From Desulfobacterales bacterium (GTDB lineage: Bacteria > Desulfobacterota > Desulfobacteria > Desulfobacterales > UBA5852), in NCBI GenBank assembly GCA_963674755.2, contig CAXXVS010000002.1:1856001-1920000 (forward strand): a stretch of DNA of 64,000 bases. The letters run 5' to 3'. The notes beneath the pieces were generated by a model. It saw nothing but the letters and a program-made list of their open reading frames with translations, did not search any database and was not told where the DNA came from. The number at the start of each line of letters is the position of its first letter. The stretch's first letter is position 1. A program made the translations under genes and the position numbers. Below are positions 28,358 to 37,413 of the stretch, one piece after another.

Positions 28358-28436
28358 TCCCTATGGCAACCCGGCTGTCTCCATAAGACCCGTGGCTTTC
28401 CGTCCCCGCCTCGCGGCGGGTTTGGCTATCGCGTGT
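28358..28436 (-). ncRNA. c-di-GMP-I (GEMM-I) riboswitch, copy 1
   Basis: Minus strand GCCAAACCCGCC-GCGA-GGCGGGGACGGAAAGCCACGGGTC...GACAGCCGGGTTGCC matches the GEMM-I architecture. Confidence 0.92.
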
Positions 28437-28453: not shown

Positions 28454-29266
28454 TTAAGCTTCGGTTAATTCGGTAGCGCAGGAATAAGGGATTAGAGATC
28501 CTGTTAGTGCATCCCGCCAGATTTTTTCGCGATGGGCGGCTTCATACACGTCTTTCTCATCGGGAATTTTCTCCGCCACGTAGCCAACAATCCGTAATTC
28601 TTCCTCTGTAAGTGGTTCAGCTTCAATCATATCCGAATCTTTAATCGCTTTCACCAGATCTCTGTAATTATTCAACTGGGGACCATAGGTGATGGCGGCG
28701 TAGCTGGCACCTGTCAGGCCTGTGCCCAACTGGCGGAATGCCAGCATGTCGGCATACCAGAGATACTTGGCCAGGAATAACATCTTGTCGCCGGATTTAA
28801 GCAGGCGCTTTCCTAAAATTTGTTCAAACGTTTTTGCAACCAGCTTGATCCGGGGAAGACTTATCTCCCGGTTGCCGGTGTAGTTGTCAGCGCTGATATT
28901 GCATTGCAACTGCATCCGCAAGGCATGATCCATCGATTTGCTCTGAACCATGCCCGTCTCCCAGCGCTTGATGCTGGCAATACCGACATTCATCCTATCG
29001 GCCAGCTGCTGCTGGGTGAGTCCCTTCGCCTCGCGCAGGGATTTGATCTCCTGGCCGGTGAGTAAATCAACCTTGGCCCGGTAGGCATCGGCAATCGCGC
29101 GCTGCACCGCACCGGCCGACTGAACCGTCCCGGCCTCCAGGCCGCATTCCGGGCAGGTGTAAACCTCCACCGCGATGGCGATATCAACGCCTTTATAAGT
29201 CATTTCCTTTTGAACCGTATTTAATCCCATCGGTCCGTGACCTTTTGGGCAATTGAGGGTTTTCAT
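28454..29266 (-). CDS. Type II antitoxin: MqsA-like Zn-ribbon + XRE HTH + Panacea/DUF4065-like domain
   Basis: CPKGH...CPECG, LREAKGLTQQQLADRMNVGIASIKRWETG, KYLWYAD...YAAITYGP. Confidence 0.8.
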   Translation of the reverse strand: MKTLNCPKGHGPMGLNTVQKEMTYKGVDIAIAVEVYTCPECGLEAGTVQSAGAVQRAIADAYRAKVDLLTGQEIKSLREAKGLTQQQLADRMNVGIASIKRWETGMVQSKSMDHALRMQLQCNISADNYTGNREISLPRIKLVAKTFEQILGKRLLKSGDKMLFLAKYLWYADMLAFRQLGTGLTGASYAAITYGPQLNNYRDLVKAIKDSDMIEAEPLTEEELRIVGYVAEKIPDEKDVYEAAHREKIWRDALTGSLIPYSCATELTEA

Positions 29267-29337
29267 ACATCCTCCTTCATTGGCCGGTCCGGCTGAAGCG
29301 ACACAAGCCAAAACATCTCATTCTGCAGGGCAAACTT
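29263..29337 (-). pseudogene. C-terminal remnant of the cognate (MqsR/RelE-like) toxin
   Basis: KFALQNEMFWLVSLQPDRPMKEDV* ends in an ATGA overlap with the antitoxin start; no room for the rest of the gene before the promoter. Confidence 0.6.
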
Positions 29338-29429: not shown

Positions 29430-30271
29430 TTAAATTCTGTGTCCATTTTTGGCCTCTCCCTGCAAAGTGTAGCCCTCCTCGTTTGCTATAACTCTCCCCA
29501 GACGGGCCGCACGGCTGACGACCGATTGATTGAGACCAAGGCGCCTGGCTATATCGATGGTGGTGAGTCCGAGATCGTTGTGGGCGAAATGGCAGATCAA
29601 ACGCCTGGCCAGAACGCTTTTAGGGGTTTTGTCGCGGGTCAGAACCGTGGATTCGACCACATTCAATAATTCCGCGACACGGCTGACAACCTTTTCGAAA
29701 TCCAATCCCAGTGATCGCAGACGGGTATGCCGGGCCAGTTGTTCGTTGGCCCCGGCAAGCATCGCTTCCACAAAGTCGGAATCGCCCAAGACACGCTCGT
29801 CACCTTTCAATCGAACCCCGGCCTTCCGCAGTTTCTTGACGGTATCCCAGCCGCCGACGCTTCGAATAAGGCCTCCTTCGACCAGTCGCGCCCGCAGAGG
29901 ATTCAAGTGGATATAGCGCACAAGTTCCTTCAGGTACTTGTCTTCCTGGCAGAGGATGGATTTGTAGCGGTTCTGAAAGAGCGGTCCGTGCCGGCGGTAG
30001 TTGCGGTTGAAACTGACCGCATATCCGGTCAGCAGGCGCTGCATGACGCTGGCGATCGGCACCTCGCTCGATCTCAGCAGCAGGTGAACATGATTGGGAA
30101 TCAGCGCCCAGGCCAGGCATTGGGTACCGGTCTCGGTTATGAGAGTCGCGAGCCGATCGATAAACCCTCGCCGATCCACGTCGGAGCGAAAGATCTTGCG
30201 GCGTTCGATCCCTCGGACGATGATGTGGTGCACCGCCCCCTGGGAGCATCGATGCGGGCGCTACGCGGCAT
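29430..30271 (-). pseudogene. REP-associated tyrosine transposase (RAYT/Y1_Tnp), frameshifted and probably internally deleted
   Basis: MPRSARIDAP start is out of frame with HHIIVRGIERR; NHVHLL HUH motif, FQNRYKS, YIHLNP; LRARLV joins directly to EGGLIRS. Confidence 0.8.
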
Positions 30272-30326: not shown

Positions 30327-31568
30327 CTAATCCCCCAGCACATCGAGTTTCGGACCGAGAATTTTAGCGACAAACCGGTCGCCGGAAACATCATTTTCCA
30401 CGAGGGCGCGAATGCGTGCGAGGATCTCGCCCCGGCAGCCAGCATTGTGGGCCGCCTCCACTGAGAACTCATAGGCCTCGCGAACATCGCGAGCGGTGAT
30501 CTCATACCCGTAACCCGCAATCAGCCAGCGCAGGGCTGCTATACCGGCTTCGAGGGCAAAGCGCGGATCCGCATGCCGCATGTCGCGCGCCGCGCGGGTG
30601 AGCGTCTTGGGGTCGCAAGGGGTGCGGTTGGCAAGGTCGATGGCCTCCCGATACAGGCCGGCTGATTTGGCGGCCGCAAACCACTTCCCCTCGTTCCCGG
30701 GGGTACTCGCCACCAGGTCGGATAGGATGGCATGGGCCGCTTTACCGGGATACTTTTTTGCAATGGCGCGGAAGGTCGCCAGGTAGGTGGTCTTCTGGTT
30801 GGCCGCGATGGCGTAGCGCTGATAAGCTTCGTCCATCAGGCCGCTTGACAGTAGAATCTCCTCGCAGGCTGCGGCGATGGCGGTCGGACTCTCGTTAAGG
30901 CTTCCCGATTCTTCGGCATAGCGAAGGGCCTCGGCTTTCCGCCCCATGGCCACCAGGGCTTTAACGCCCCATTTGCGCTCGTGCCAGAATCGGTGAGGCG
31001 CAAGATCGAGCAGTTCGAGAAGTTCCTCGTGGCGTCCGGCCGAAAACAGGGCACTCAGGCAGGCCGGGGTGCCCTTGAAATAGCTCCCGATCATGCGCCG
31101 GCTCTCGGACCAGGTGACGTGCACCGGCGTCTTCAGTTCATCAGCCCAATCGGAAGCCAGTTCCGGGGTTTGGCACAGCTTGCCCCAGTGTTCCGGAAGC
31201 AATTCGATATAGGGGATATCGTCTTCCTCGATGGCTTTCCACAGCCGGTCAAGCCATTTGCGGCGGACGTTTTCCGCCACAGGGGCCCGGGCGATGATAG
31301 AGGCCAGGGTCTCGACGGCATTGTTGACGGCCGTCCCGATGGCGCCGGAGGAGCTGTCCACATGCGCCAGGGCCGGCGACACTTTTTCCAAGAACAGCAC
31401 CGCTCCTTCGGCACCGGAAACAGGATCCTTCCGGGCCACGGATTTGATTTCCGCAACCGCCTCCTTTACCCGCTGGACGGCCACCTGGGAACGCCAGCCA
31501 AAGGCGTGGCGCCGGAAACGACTCGTGAATGTCCATTTGTGTTTCTCTGCGCGTGTCACAGGTTCCAA
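30327..31568 (-). CDS. Hypothetical alpha-helical protein (413 aa)
   Basis: Long uninterrupted ORF; no catalytic motif recognised. Confidence 0.75.
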   Translation of the reverse strand: MEPVTRAEKHKWTFTSRFRRHAFGWRSQVAVQRVKEAVAEIKSVARKDPVSGAEGAVLFLEKVSPALAHVDSSSGAIGTAVNNAVETLASIIARAPVAENVRRKWLDRLWKAIEEDDIPYIELLPEHWGKLCQTPELASDWADELKTPVHVTWSESRRMIGSYFKGTPACLSALFSAGRHEELLELLDLAPHRFWHERKWGVKALVAMGRKAEALRYAEESGSLNESPTAIAAACEEILLSSGLMDEAYQRYAIAANQKTTYLATFRAIAKKYPGKAAHAILSDLVASTPGNEGKWFAAAKSAGLYREAIDLANRTPCDPKTLTRAARDMRHADPRFALEAGIAALRWLIAGYGYEITARDVREAYEFSVEAAHNAGCRGEILARIRALVENDVSGDRFVAKILGPKLDVLGD

Positions 31569-31666
31569 CTCACCTTGGCGGTTTCAAAGAAAACATAAGA
31601 CAGGAACTGTTGTATGCGGCGGGGTAGAAACTAACAGGAAGAGCGGGGATAGTAAAGCATAATAAC

Positions 31667-33413
31667 ATAGACGTTATATATTGAAATAGTTAGAGAATAT
31701 ACCTCCGAGAGTAGCAAAAAGAGAAGTAATTATCGCCTTGAAAAGAAAATAGCCTCCAGGTAGCACAAAGGTGGACAAACCTTCAACACGAGCTACGAGG
31801 AGGCTATTATGAACAACAGAGAAGTTAGCAGGTACGAGGAATACTGTCAATTTCGCTCCACTGTGCGCGGCCGCCGGGATTATCTGCTCGTAGGCATCGA
31901 TGTGGCCAAGGAACGCCACCATGCCTTCTTCGGCACCGCCACCGGCAAAACGCTGCTAAAGCGGCTGATCTTTGACAACGACCGCACCGGTTTCGAGCAG
32001 CTCATCGAAAGGGCTGAACAACTGATGGTGGCCCATTCCTGCCGGAAGGTCGCCTTCGGACTGGAGCCCACCGGCAATTACCACAAGCCTTTGGCCAACT
32101 GGCTTTTGGAACAGGATCAACTTCTGGTACTGGTCTCCAACAAAGCCATTGCCGACAACCGCGAGAGTCTCGACGGGCGCTGGGATAAGAACGACACCAA
32201 AGACAGCGCCAATGTGGCTGACCTGATGGCGCAGGGCAAATGCCAGTTCTTTGAAAAGCCTTCGGCGGAGCTTACCGCGTTGCGCAGCTTGCTTTCACTT
32301 CGCAAGCGGCTCAAACGCGATGAACACAGTTTGCGCATGCAGATCCGCAATGGGCTTTTGGTTCGCCACTTCCCCGAGATGGATCGCCTGTGGGGTAGCT
32401 GTCTTAAAGAGAATCTAGCCATCGTGCGCAGCTGCCTTGACCCGCGTACCATCAGCGCCATGCCCTTTAACGAGTTCCTCCGGCGGGTGACCGATCGTGA
32501 TAGAGGCTTGCGCCAGGTCAAGCGTTTGCAGCGCATCCACGAGGTCGCCGGCACCTCCATCGGCTGCCCCGTGGATGAAGCTGCCCAGTTCGAGGCTCTC
32601 CAACTGGTGGATCGCTTAAATGATCTGCGCGACCGTATTAGTCACACCGAAAAACAGATTGCGGATATCTGTCAGGGCTTTTCAGCTTACCGGCGATTGT
32701 TGACGATCCCCGGCTTTGGCCCTTACGTGGCTTCTCAGGTGATCGCGCGCATCGGAGACCCGCATCGCTTCGCCGGTCGCAAACAGCTCATCCGCCTAGC
32801 GGGCTACGACCTGAACGCCAAGCGTAGCGGCAAGACCAGTGATAAGGCCGTGCCGGTGATCTCCAAGCGCGGCAATGGCGACCTCCGCTACGCCCTGTAT
32901 CAAGCGGCCCAGATCGCCTCTTATCACGACAATGGATTCCGCGCTTTGTTTACCCGTTATCTTCAAGGCCGGGAACGCGAGCGTGGCATCAAGACCAAGA
33001 TGCGAGTGAAACTGGCCGTCAAAATGCTGGTCATTGCCTGGTGCATGATGCGCGATGAGACGGATTACGATCCTGCGCTGCTAAAGGTGTAAGCGGTCCT
33101 CTGGACCGCCGTGTTCATCACAATCGAAGTCGTTTGTTCGGCGAGAGAGCCCTTTTATAGACGTTGAGGTCATAACCTCGGTGGGGACAATACCCGGGCC
33201 TCTCTCTGAACTCCAAGCCTGGATAAGGAATGATGGGTGCCGCCGTTTCCGGCAGGACACCGGATAACTGTAACGATCAGGCCATGAGTTCGCCGACCGG
33301 AGAGATACTCGCCGATCCACAAAACCGACAGGAGAAGTGTTTCTTGCCTCTGACAACAACCGTAACTATTTGATTATTCAGTTTTATTTATTTTGTTGAC
33401 AAGGGGAATATAG
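31667..33413 (+). mobile_element. IS110-family insertion sequence (predicted ends at an ATAG core)
   Basis: ATAG at 31667-31670 and 33410-33413; TTGACA inside the right end and TATATT inside the left end; about 320-bp 3' non-coding region. Confidence 0.7.
31809..33092 (+). CDS. IS110-family DEDD recombinase/transposase
   Basis: VGIDVAK, LEPTGNY, KNDTKDS, TIPGFG, SG motif (KRSGK), ISKRGNGDLRYALY. Confidence 0.95.
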   Translation: MNNREVSRYEEYCQFRSTVRGRRDYLLVGIDVAKERHHAFFGTATGKTLLKRLIFDNDRTGFEQLIERAEQLMVAHSCRKVAFGLEPTGNYHKPLANWLLEQDQLLVLVSNKAIADNRESLDGRWDKNDTKDSANVADLMAQGKCQFFEKPSAELTALRSLLSLRKRLKRDEHSLRMQIRNGLLVRHFPEMDRLWGSCLKENLAIVRSCLDPRTISAMPFNEFLRRVTDRDRGLRQVKRLQRIHEVAGTSIGCPVDEAAQFEALQLVDRLNDLRDRISHTEKQIADICQGFSAYRRLLTIPGFGPYVASQVIARIGDPHRFAGRKQLIRLAGYDLNAKRSGKTSDKAVPVISKRGNGDLRYALYQAAQIASYHDNGFRALFTRYLQGRERERGIKTKMRVKLAVKMLVIAWCMMRDETDYDPALLKV

Positions 33414-33423
33414 AATGTCCCCT

Positions 33424-33794
33424 CCTCCTAGCCCGAGCACAGTCTTCATCCAGGTGCTCAAGGACCACCAGGTTAAAATCAGCATGGACGGCCGGGGCCG
33501 CTGTCAGGACAACATCTTCATCGAGCGGCTGTGGTGGACCATCAAGTATCGGTATCTTTACCTGCATTCGTTTGATTCCGGTCGCGACTTGCGACGGGGG
33601 CTGACGGAGTGGGTCCGCTACTATAACCAGCAACGTGGGCATTCTTCTCTTGACGATCTAACCCCGGATGAAGTCTATTACGGTCTACCTCATCCTTTTG
33701 CCGAGGCTGCCTGATGCCTTGTTCTCTATACAATCGCTCTCGGCTTATAGCTTATCTATACCATCAGGCTGTCCAACTCTTGGGGTCCACCGCC
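33424..33794 (+). pseudogene. IS3-family remnant: transposase C-terminus plus right end
   Basis: ISMDGRGRCQDNIFIERLWWTIKY...YYNQQRGHSSL; IS3-like right end CTGTCCAACTCTTGGGGTCCACC; N-terminus absent. Confidence 0.85.
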
Positions 33795-34047: not shown

Positions 34048-34126
34048 CTGATAGCGGCAACCCGGCTGCCTTCTGGAGGCCCGTGGCTTTCCGTCCCCAG
34101 CTCACGCCGGGTTTGGCTTTGTATAG
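34048..34126 (-). ncRNA. c-di-GMP-I (GEMM-I) riboswitch, copy 2
   Basis: Minus strand GCCAAACCCGGC-GTGA-GCTGGGGACGGAAAGCCACGGGCC...GGCAGCCGGGTTGCC. Confidence 0.92.
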
Positions 34127-35523: not shown

Positions 35524-37413
35524 GATGGCATCGTAAAAAGTCTATCCGCCTGAATTATTTAACAAAACGCCCAATTTCAGCTTGCCATTTTCTTCTCGTC
35601 ATGCTACAGGAAACCAAACAATTACAGATGGTTATCCTGGAGATCGCATGCTTCGCATCAAAGACCACAAACAGCAACATCTCTTCGACCCGTGGGCCTA
35701 TTTGAGCCCCAAACGGCGCCGGATGCTCGAAGAGGGCTGGCCCGGGTTGTTCCGCCAGCATCTGCTCGGAGAACTTCCCGTCGATCTGTTAAAACCCTTC
35801 TTCACTGAAGCCATAGGGCGGCCCACCAAGGAACTGCATACCCTGCTGGGAGTGATGCTTTTCCAGCAAACCATGGATTTAAACGATGTCGAGGCCGTCG
35901 AGCAGCTGGCCTACAACCTCCAGTGGCATTATGCTCTGGACATCACTGAAGAAAGCGACGAGGCCAAATACGTCAGCGAAAAGACCCTGTGGTCGACCCG
36001 CCAGCTGATGGCCGAAAATGGCATTGACGGGGTCATGTTCGAAAAGCTCACCGACAAATTGGCCAAAGTGTTCGGTGTAGATCCTTCCAACCAGCGCATC
36101 GACTCGGTACACATCCGCTCCAACATGCGCCGGCTGGGCCGTATTGCCATTTTCAGCCGCACGATCGCCAAGTTCCTGGTCAATCTCAAACGCCACCACC
36201 GAGAGCTGTTCGATACGATCGCTTCTGATGTGATTGATCGTTACTGGGGTGAGAAGGCCCTATCCGCCTTTTCTCTGGTTAAACCCACGGAATCGGAAAA
36301 GACGTTAAAACGGGTCAGCAATGATCTGTTCGATCTGATCGAGGGCTTCAAGGACCAAACGGCGGTGGCTTTCATGCACAGCTACAAGCTCATGCAGCGG
36401 GTGCTCGCCGATCAATGCCATGTCGAGACCGATGCCGCCGGTGCCCCCCAAGTAACGATAAAGAAGCCGGCCGAGATCCCCTCCGACTCATTGCAAAACC
36501 CTTCGGACCCGGAGGCCACCTACAGCGGCCACAAGGGCCAGGGCTATCAGGTCCAGATCATGGAGAGCTTCAGCCGCAGTGAAGAGGCCAATGAAAAAGA
36601 GCAGGCGCTTAACCTGATTACCCATGTCGAAGTTCAACCCGCCTGCGAGAGCGATGCGGAGGCCGTGGTGCCGGCCATCGCCGATACCAAGATCCGGGGT
36701 GTGGGGCCCGATCAGTTGGTCGCCGACACTTTGTACGGCAGTGACAGTAACCACCAGACGGCCCAAGTGGCCGATGTCGACCTTGTCGCCCCGACCCAGA
36801 AGGGCAATGAGTCCAAGCCGCTCACGGCGTTTAGCTTTAATGACAAGGGCTATGTCGAGACCTGTCCGGCGGGTCACGTTCCCGAGCAGGTGAAGCACAA
36901 GAAGAAAACCGATTGTTACAGCGCGGCCTTCGATTCCACGCTTTGCCAGGGATGTCCGCATGCGGGTCATTGCCCGGTCAAGCCTGGGAAAAAGAAGAAC
37001 TATCTGCGCTACAGCGGAAAGCAATATCGCCTATCGGTGCGTCGCAAGGCCGAGAAAAGCGAGGCTTTCATTGACACCTATCGCTGGCGGGCCGGTGTGG
37101 AGGCCACCATGAGCGAATATGATCGGCGCACCGGGGTCAAAAAGCTACGGGTTCGGGGCATGCCGGCGGTGCGCTTCTGTGCCAAAATGAAGGCCACCGG
37201 GCTCAATCTGCTACGGGCGGCCCGGGTTCGCAGGGCCAGAATGAAGGCCGCAGAGGGTAATCCGGGCCTTGATCACCGTATTACGACTGCTGTTTATCGT
37301 GTCAAAGAACGTTTACAGGCCGCTCTGGTGGAATTTGCCTTCGCTTGGACAAATTCGTCGGGAAGATATCCAGAAAGCTACAAATTGGCCGCCTGATTTT
37401 TTACGCGGCCATC
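35524..37413 (+). mobile_element. IS1182/IS5-like insertion sequence
   Basis: TIRs GATGGCATCGTAAAAAGTC / GATTTTTTACGCGGCCATC; 6-bp target duplication AAGGTT (35518-35523, 37414-37419). Confidence 0.9.
35648..37396 (+). CDS. DDE transposase (IS1182/IS5-like)
   Basis: GRPT, QRIDSVHI, SLQNPSDPEATY, VADTLYGS, Cys-rich insert, YRWRAGVEAT. Confidence 0.9.
   Translation: MLRIKDHKQQHLFDPWAYLSPKRRRMLEEGWPGLFRQHLLGELPVDLLKPFFTEAIGRPTKELHTLLGVMLFQQTMDLNDVEAVEQLAYNLQWHYALDITEESDEAKYVSEKTLWSTRQLMAENGIDGVMFEKLTDKLAKVFGVDPSNQRIDSVHIRSNMRRLGRIAIFSRTIAKFLVNLKRHHRELFDTIASDVIDRYWGEKALSAFSLVKPTESEKTLKRVSNDLFDLIEGFKDQTAVAFMHSYKLMQRVLADQCHVETDAAGAPQVTIKKPAEIPSDSLQNPSDPEATYSGHKGQGYQVQIMESFSRSEEANEKEQALNLITHVEVQPACESDAEAVVPAIADTKIRGVGPDQLVADTLYGSDSNHQTAQVADVDLVAPTQKGNESKPLTAFSFNDKGYVETCPAGHVPEQVKHKKKTDCYSAAFDSTLCQGCPHAGHCPVKPGKKKNYLRYSGKQYRLSVRRKAEKSEAFIDTYRWRAGVEATMSEYDRRTGVKKLRVRGMPAVRFCAKMKATGLNLLRAARVRRARMKAAEGNPGLDHRITTAVYRVKERLQAALVEFAFAWTNSSGRYPESYKLAA

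Follow-up and report, generated by a model that had tools for sequence, protein, structure and literature searches.

An insertion sequence (IS) of the IS110 type at positions 31675 to 33418 of a 64,000-nucleotide stretch of a Desulfobacterales genome (GCA_963674755.2, contig CAXXVS010000002.1, positions 1,856,001 to 1,920,000; the whole stretch is hereafter called the window) raised the question of where such an element ends and which DNA the RNA from its non-coding end reads. An original prediction, made from the letters of the window, had proposed an RNA-guided recombinase with a 4-bp ATAG core at both ends and a guide RNA whose orientation departed from that of IS621. Comparison of copies, empty sites and homologues led to a different picture, in which the element is very probably a real, intact bridge recombinase of the IS110 family, with an IS621-like mode of action and a bridge RNA encoded in its right end. 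This picture draws on the ends, a GT core, two RNA loops and three of four guides, which covary with DNA. Coordinates refer to the plus strand of the window unless stated otherwise.

An intact recombinase of the IS110 family

The open reading frame (ORF) at 31809-33092 encoded an intact protein of 427 amino acids (aa) that matched NF033542 ('IS110 family RNA-guided transposase') above its cut-off, as well as PF01548 and PF02371. Both the RuvC-like DEDD domain and the Tnp domain with the catalytic serine were present, residues D31, E86, D129, D132 and G341 being invariant and S340 nearly so among 33 homologues. The AlphaFold model (mean predicted local distance difference test score 88.5) was closest in fold to IS621 and ISCro4 (template modelling score 0.8 by target length), which were the sole solved structures found in a PDB search for relatives of the enzyme. 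Extra helices between the coiled-coil helices and an enlarged variable region characterized the 427-aa enzyme. The non-coding DNA of the element comprised 326 bp downstream and 134 bp upstream of the gene. Every feature that could be checked here points to membership in the IS110 family, and the domains, together with the guide-flank covariation reported below, support the earlier proposal of an RNA-guided recombinase with a guide RNA in the 3' non-coding end.

The homologue family was broad (732 representatives at E below 1e-30). One query across genomes of the phylum detected a family member in 16 out of 401, and a scan with one distant homologue as query found nothing. Comparisons relied on 160 fetched loci plus the three copies from the window's own genome, i.e., 163 parsed rows.

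Ends and core of the element

The own genome harbored two further copies, at C1 78441-80192 (94.7% identity) and C3 2302772-2298328 (interrupted), together with two 42-bp pieces of the element. Four other places in the genome matched the element from 31671 onward and two matched it up to 33422-23; the left flanks at those places ended in CACCAAC or CAACAAC, and ATAG was missing. Empty sites in two genomes of the same genus (L174 and L177) displayed the left flank of the window copy with ATAG kept, a single GT, and then CCC. A contig of run X3 tracked the left flank to 31674 and then departed, while loose ends accumulated at 31670-72. A single GT marked the empty target, and the filled site had one at each junction. 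Because other copies lacked the left ATAG and empty sites carried one GT, the core is the 2-bp GT at 31673-31674 and 33417-33418, and the element is 1744 bp long (31675-33418).

All letters quoted in the original prediction were in place, including ATAG at 31667-70 and 33410-13, TTGACA at 33396-401 and two boxes resembling binding sites of integration host factor (IHF) at 33363-75 (minus strand) and 31680-92. The 4-bp core did not survive the very alignment of copies and empty sites that had been suggested for fixing the ends, which returned different boundaries and GT instead of ATAG. Of the two ATAG motifs, that on the left belongs to the target DNA and that on the right to the interior of the element; their occurrence at both places is a coincidence of target positions P2-P5 and donor positions P1-P4. 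The AC that the copies share at the left junction and the CCCC that they share at the right one are conserved bases of the target. With these ends, the left target (P1-P7) is at 31666-31672, the left donor (P1-P7) at 33410-33416 and the right target (CCCC) at 33419-33422. The right donor (P10-P14) lies in 31675-31682, a segment that also holds the left arm of a short inverted repeat.

Homologues with both ends (n=53) were mostly 1711-1774 bp long. The inverted repeat spanned 6 bp in the window copy and 3-4 well-kept pairs over the 53 loci (counts that include a few rows with misplaced left ends), and showed little covariation of its own. The C3 copy (2298328-2302772, minus strand) was interrupted by a 2.7-kb element with ORFs of 554 and 267 aa, IS21-like by eye, and was itself a chimera: its 5' half was 95% like the window copy, its middle 72-87%, and its RNA and right end 93-97%, with a different left guide. 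At locus L080, an inverted right end of the same family occupied the place of the left end, upstream of the gene.

A target-binding loop that follows the flank

The motif TATAGACGTT at 33156-65 and GGGGACA at 33183-89 are best read as the two sides of one target-binding loop in the IS621 orientation, in which the left guide pairs with the bottom strand and the right guide with the top strand (PMC11208160). The spaced pair of matches occurred twice in 6.7 Mb, both strands considered, which is beyond chance. A readable guide and left flank were available in 77 of the 163 rows. The predicted left target guide (P1-P9, 33156-33164) matched the seven bases before the core at 5.51 of 7 positions, against 4.27 +- 0.12 after guides had been exchanged at random between loci, a level that 0 of 10,000 shuffles reached; a smaller, earlier subset (39 of 83 rows) agreed. 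In pairs taken independently on a FastTree tree of the proteins, changes at P5 (15 pairs) went the same way in 10.2 and the opposite way in 0.1 (median p 0.002); P3 (p 0.02 and 0.03) and P4-G (p 0.02) behaved likewise. The left guide turned over quickly, with 43 changes among 69 rows.

The original prediction had taken TATAGACGTT for a copy of the donor junction. Its match varied between copies while the donor ends stayed constant and, since it changes with the flank and not with the element ends, it is a target guide rather than a donor guide. Covariation between loops and DNA, a check that had been proposed with that prediction, was found for three guides, but for this motif it tracked the target and not the donor. 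The pairing proposed between GGGGACA and the right flank fared better: GGGGAC (33183-33188) would indeed guide the right target, while the seventh base, A33189, is a candidate handshake base. The right guide was near constant; the exceptions, L006 and L313, carried other guides that each matched their own right flank at 6/6 positions, and from P13 onward the right-guide match was poor in the remaining rows. The flank of the C1 copy was matched at 3/7 positions by its own guide (6 with G-T pairs) and at 6/7 by the guide of the C3 copy, which would fit guidance in trans or tolerance of wobble pairs.

Half of a target loop, comprising the right guide and stem, was present additionally between the stop codon and the full RNA in L008-L014, L017, L088, L090, L091, L126 and L142, and a long spacer separated stop codon and full RNA in 22 of 106 rows. 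The extra half loop may be the trace of RNA-cassette replacement, a route to guide swapping.

Donor loop, candidate handshake bases and predicted RNA structure

GAATG was located on the 5' side of a second loop (33217-82) and GTAAC on the 3' side. The variable base of this loop agreed with donor P5 in all 73 rows (G 43, A 28, T 2), and the left donor guide ended after the first core base, as that of IS621 does. A contiguous 8-nt left donor guide was mismatched at P2 in 73/73 rows. By contrast, P1-P6 were paired in 73/73 with a bulged guide made of two bases (33223-24), a 2-nt bulge (33225-26), a wobble G (G33227) and five bases, the last six positions spanning 33227-32. One clade (5 of 73 rows) carried the T-to-C change at P2 both in the RNA and in the DNA. 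So did L302, a row placed elsewhere on an IQ-TREE tree (67 rows; L301, without a parsed protein, was omitted) and with a different RNA background. The left donor guide therefore probably pairs with a 2-nt bulge. A variant with AUA before the bulge gave mismatches at P3 in 6 of 73 rows, a poorer fit than AU, and was discarded.

The right donor guide of IS621 is split into two bases, two flipped bases, a G-T pair and four bases (PMC11208158). By analogy, the right donor guide here would show the same split with a 4-nt loop (33264-65, loop, 33270-74), followed by the candidate handshake base G33275. The wobble position 33270 was G in 88, A in 10 and T in 1 of 99 rows, and the base following the guide was G in 97 of 100. 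Target P7 was C in 122/126 rows and donor P7 was T in 73/74. As in the handshake pattern of IS621, A33189 would then pair with the donor T at P7 after exchange, and G33275 with the target C at P7.

The predicted bridge RNA, about 180 nt, spans 33137-33315, its ends being placed by an outer closing stem (33137-45 with 33308-15) that was read from the predicted fold and by eye and lies outside the stem counts. Over 32 sequences, 91% of stem cells were paired and two-sided changes numbered 97 against 33 in shuffled data. The RNA model scanned over the own genome gave 3 matches, all in the IS copies, hence no orphan bridge RNAs. In the RNA runs X17 and X18, only short pieces of 85-95% identity were recovered; one X18 contig crossed the gene end and RNA of a relative and stopped at 33293, and another crossed the left junction. 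Since the latter makes library DNA possible in X18, no expression is claimed.

The earlier statement that the orientation of the matches does not fit IS621 has to be withdrawn, because with a GT core the four guides and both candidate handshake bases fit the geometry described for IS621 (PMC11208158). The accompanying suggestion of a different RNA architecture retains some merit, not for the match orientation but for the position of the RNA, its outer closing stem and, probably, its bulged left donor guide.

Terminal repeats of TIRYT/RAYT elements as probable targets

The usual target appears to be the terminal repeat of TIRYT/RAYT elements and of their miniature forms. Of 99 left flanks, 16 had a minus-strand TIRYT-like start codon at most 150 nt away from the junction, whereas none of 53 right flanks did. 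In the own genome, the target motif was found 94-112 bp upstream of 6 of 12 RAYT-like matches and, at four loci, about 0.75-1 kb downstream in opposite orientation. Terminal repeats of 27 and 39 nt surrounded two RAYT-like genes (two of three regions examined), and one intact RAYT-like gene gave a Y1_Tnp match and weak C-terminal helix-turn-helix (HTH) matches in Pfam. Miniature forms with both repeats accounted for 4 of 105 flanks. The empty site L174 put the left flank of the window copy itself about 50 bp from a TIRYT start, which ties this flank to a TIRYT-type end; the left target would then be the inner part of such a repeat and the CCCC on the right its outer tip.

Two other target identities were rejected. 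As a high-copy repetitive extragenic palindromic (REP) sequence, the 8-mer was not enriched (188 occurrences vs 111-371 for control words), and CGTC-type REPs, which were without a transposase, fitted poorly. TIRtron ends in the own genome (e.g., C2 1653872 and C1 623623) often displayed a second C-run or GTCCCC 4-6 bases outside. A RAYT/TIRYT-like Y1 transposase with frameshifted N-terminal residues was located in the window at 29430-30270 (minus strand), its ends being without the target motif.

Predicted promoters, hairpin and IHF-like boxes

Circularization at the GT core would create a promoter-like site, as predicted originally. In 68 of the 69 right ends that the donor motif alone located (69 of 74 right ends being located in this way), a TTGAC motif preceded the core by 21 bp, give or take 1 bp. 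In the window copy, TTGACA (33396-401) would form the -35 half and the segment 31675-31682 the -10 half. The predicted spacing of 18 bp needs correction, since the true ends give 19 bp to TATATT; TATATA, preceded by TG, lies at 17 bp. Across loci, the -10 of the junction stood either at 17 bp with a poor last base and TG, or at 19 bp (5/6 bases; 6/6 in 2 of 53 loci).

The left end carried an anti-Shine-Dalgarno arm (31749-31757) and a Shine-Dalgarno arm (31799-31807) of one hairpin in 133 of 152 rows. One of its flanking positions was paired in 0.94 of 123 loci against 0.51 expected, by TA, AT and CG pairs, a compensatory pattern. The predicted probability of an unpaired Shine-Dalgarno sequence was 0 in a long transcript and 0.3-0.98 in a short one. 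An extended -10 (TGnTA) followed the anti-Shine-Dalgarno arm in 107 of 136 homologues. In the window copy, the predicted internal transposase promoter (31738-31766; TTGAAA, 17 bp, TAGCAC) was weak, and a consensus promoter scan did not pick it up. The -10 of this promoter follows the anti-Shine-Dalgarno arm, so that its transcript would be without that arm. According to the folding predictions, a transcript from the junction or from outside would thus form the hairpin and hide the ribosome site, and one from the internal promoter would not. The transposases of IS10 and IS50 are shielded from read-through transcription in a similar way.

Of the two IHF-like boxes, scored against the IHF consensus, the right one (33363-33375, minus strand) was kept and the left one was not. 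Sites with at least 8 of 9 consensus bases occurred in 53 of 74 right ends (21% in shuffles), mostly at one position, and in 24 of 126 left ends (18% in shuffles). A long IS1111-type inverted repeat built from both boxes was rejected, given that one box stands 41 bp and the other 5 bp away from the core and that the left box is not conserved. A minus-strand TGnTAnnnT-like motif at 31707-31716 (left-end offset 41-42) was detected in 27 of 126 rows under strict matching. It may act as a promoter directed outward and, at 5' repeats, would then face the TIRYT gene.

Scars of the left end

In recurrent 38-bp scars, target DNA and a GT were followed by 35-36 bases from the start of the left end, a second GT and CCC. 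They were found at two places in the own genome and two in other Desulfobacterota genomes (L163 and L169), with a probable fifth (L241). The scars stop at a GT (31711-31712 in the window, overlapping the possible outward extended -10) that 66 of 126 left ends retained at the same offset and that resembled neither donor nor target. A scan for the exact scar pattern gave no match. Of 9 matches from a second scan, 2 were judged to be scars, whereas 3 belonged to intact left ends and 4 were put down to chance. A further scan gave 107, of which 80 were listed and 16 inspected, with one likely scar among the latter.

The simplest reading is that a scar would be the chromosomal product of half-match excision between the internal GT and the right junction. 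Circles that are only partial, closed between a canonical end and internal positions that recur, have been described (10.64898/2026.08.14.744561; 10.64898/2026.08.31.748434). Copy-out leaving the flank unjoined was described for CazIS110-1 (10.1101/2025.10.25.684509), and rejoining of the flank was reported for IS621 (PMC13626964).

Proposed mechanism and alternatives

By extension from IS621, the element would circularize at the GT core. The target loop and the donor loop, perhaps from two RNA molecules, would be bound by a tetramer of the recombinase, and the top strands would be cut beside the core and then exchanged. The handshake bases (target-loop A with donor T, donor-loop G with target C) would favor insertion over excision. 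In the present element, the right guide would read the constant tip of the repeat, while the left guide would be re-tuned to repeat variants. Transcripts from the promoter created by the joined ends would conceal the ribosome site and hence mainly supply RNA, and the internal promoter would supply the protein. Taken jointly, the observations may describe a clade in which long bridge recombinases use a donor loop that is split twice (both donor guides being AU, bulge and wobble G, and reading the ATA/TAT repeat). Such recombinases would parasitize TIRYT ends and have their left guide re-tuned far faster than the enzyme. Their two-promoter switch would let the circle yield RNA and not protein, and the 38-bp scars would stem from half-match excision with the right flank rejoined. 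As a whole, this joint account is tentative, and its being correct in every part is possible rather than probable.

Several points weigh against the main reading of an IS621-like bridge recombinase. Guide-target matches were loose, with 13 of 77 perfect (7/7) and 12 of 77 at four or fewer; the C1 copy matched its own flank at 3/7 positions (6 allowing G-T wobble), the P4-C pairs were not significant (p 0.125), and the left-flank reading for L006 was made by eye. In the donor loop, the tree shows 3 changes and 2 independent pairs behind the agreement at P5 (p 0.5), the bulge is supported by 2 changes, and the right donor is invariant, so that covariation cannot probe its guide. The target-loop handshake A (106/106) is circular, A being part of the search pattern, and the donor-loop handshake base changed in one clade only (3 rows). 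The RNA-stem shuffles ignored relatedness, and an Rfam search returned no family at the bridge-RNA region. The -10 of the junction promoter is either poor at 17 bp or good at 19 bp, and no circle junction was found in the contigs of runs X1, X3, X17 and X18. Most flanks were without an assignment beyond the 16 of 99 tied to a TIRYT start and the 4 of 105 tied to a miniature repeat.

The strongest competitor concerns the left donor guide, which could be contiguous and short (P3-P8), the upstream AU being a protein-bound linker and the C variants coincidental. P1 still pairs in 68 of 73 rows, only two independent changes back the bulge and the left donor guide of IS621 is contiguous (PMC11208158); nevertheless, the invariable mismatch at P2, the free variation of the two bases called bulged and the mirroring of both C changes in the DNA make this reading rather unlikely. 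A use of the seekRNA type, in which a short target-loop RNA acts alone and the ends are read mainly by protein (IHF box and short inverted repeat) with a secondary role for the donor loop, would accord with the kept right IHF-like box and with CazIS110-1, whose bound RNA was 90% target-loop-only (10.1101/2025.10.25.684509). An 82-nt short RNA was also enough for ISEc11. It appears improbable here, as the donor loop has been conserved and, at P5 and P2, varies together with the left donor, whereas the inverted repeat is just 3-6 bp with little covariation.

That the guide-flank match arose after insertion, by copying or gene conversion between flank and RNA, would suit the fast change of the guide. 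Copies with the same guide at different flanks (L011-L013 and L061-L063) and a geometry equal to that of experimentally programmed IS621 (PMC11208160, PMC11208158) render it very improbable. Least credible, with hardly any probability left, is the initial model of an ATAG core, a donor junction guided by 33156-65 and an RNA orientation foreign to IS621. ATAG does occur at both places and the 10-mer TATAGACGTT equals the junction that joining there would produce, but the copies without a left ATAG, the empty sites retaining ATAG and one GT, and the 10-mer following the flank rather than the ends all contradict it. Bridge recombination at a GT core in the manner of IS621 remains the preferred reading.

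Neighborhood in the window

Two c-di-GMP-I-GGC riboswitch aptamers above the gathering score (28361-28435 and 34052-34126, both on the minus strand) flanked the mobile-element cluster, a small minus-strand ORF starting just downstream of the second. An IS3-family 3' fragment (33434-33714), 98-99% identical to two C3 copies and missing its 5' part, began 15 bp after the IS110 element. The minus strand encoded an MqsA/HTH/Panacea antitoxin-like protein (28454-29311) and a 413-aa protein without a confident family (30327-31568). A DDE transposase of the IS1182/IS5 neighborhood, below family cut-offs, was encoded at 35582-37396 on the plus strand.

Comparison with known systems

IS621 and ISCro4 share with the window element the DEDD plus serine enzyme and its fold, as well as a two-loop RNA (PMC11208160, PMC11208158). 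Left guides identical to the top strand and right guides complementary to it, and a left donor guide ending after the first core base, are common to both. So are a short ATA/TAT repeat and a target in a repeat tied to a Y1 transposase. A split right donor guide with a G-T wobble is predicted by analogy, and the bases at P7 (C in the target, T in the donor) fit a putative handshake with A and G. The window enzyme differs by its length (427 vs about 326 aa; about 20% identity), and its RNA lies downstream instead of upstream of the gene. The core is GT instead of CT, the loop of the right donor guide would measure 4 nt instead of 2, the left donor guide is probably bulged, and an outer closing stem is predicted. 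IS621 itself works less well with non-CT cores (PMC11208160).

With the IS1111 group, the element shares a predicted guide RNA in the 3' non-coding region and a predicted junction promoter, and some members of that group (IS4321/IS5075, judging from a paper title) likewise target the terminal repeats of other transposons. In contrast to that group, it has no subterminal repeat of 7-17 bp, an enzyme outside the 330-350 aa range and no proline in the GL-P----SG motif (PMC11187229). The short repeat and the 427-aa enzyme place it outside the IS1111 group. IS110-group members with long enzymes, and with a downstream non-coding region, have both been noted (PMC11187229), and by length and variable region the enzyme fits the long-transposase IS110 subgroup (395-455 aa; ISRel25, ISMex12, ISYps2). 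ISRel25, present in the data sets of both 2024 papers (PMC11208160, PMC11187229), was the nearest named element (30.6% identity) and also has non-coding DNA after its gene, in whose locus the window-derived RNA model found no match.

ISPpu9 resembles the element in its transposase translation blocked by a 5' structure, its non-CT core, and its sub-element circles and remnants; it differs by an upstream RNA, the lack of a junction promoter and antisense RNAs, where the window element has a simple anti-Shine-Dalgarno hairpin overlapping an internal promoter (PMC12288879). On the target side, TIRtrons comprise a Y1 transposase flanked by G-rich terminal inverted repeats (PMC3733652; 10.1101/279083). 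The targets reported here, with a Y1 transposase, a C-terminal HTH (weak in Pfam) and G-rich terminal inverted repeats, compare well with TIRYT, RAYT subclass 2.1, although their repeats start with GGGACG, only partly like the published GGGGWSAS. Among the listings of literature searches, with most subscription papers and some supplements out of reach, there was no paper on this clade, on an IS110 element directed at the ends of TIRtrons or on a left donor guide with a bulge.

The system offers a fully mapped, apparently intact bridge recombinase from a branch without a solved structure in the PDB search, with a natural GT core and a longer enzyme. Donor-loop design rules would differ from those of IS621 if the bulge is real. 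The system bears on natural re-tuning of guides, on the supply of a downstream RNA versus protein, and on the rejoining of flanks upon excision, and the 38-bp scars, if correctly read, bear on the question of cut-out versus copy-out. It also links bridge recombinases to TIRtrons, a little-studied class of elements. Compared with IS621 and its relatives, the mechanism is a known one, of which this case is now corrected and mapped, with a few testable departures.

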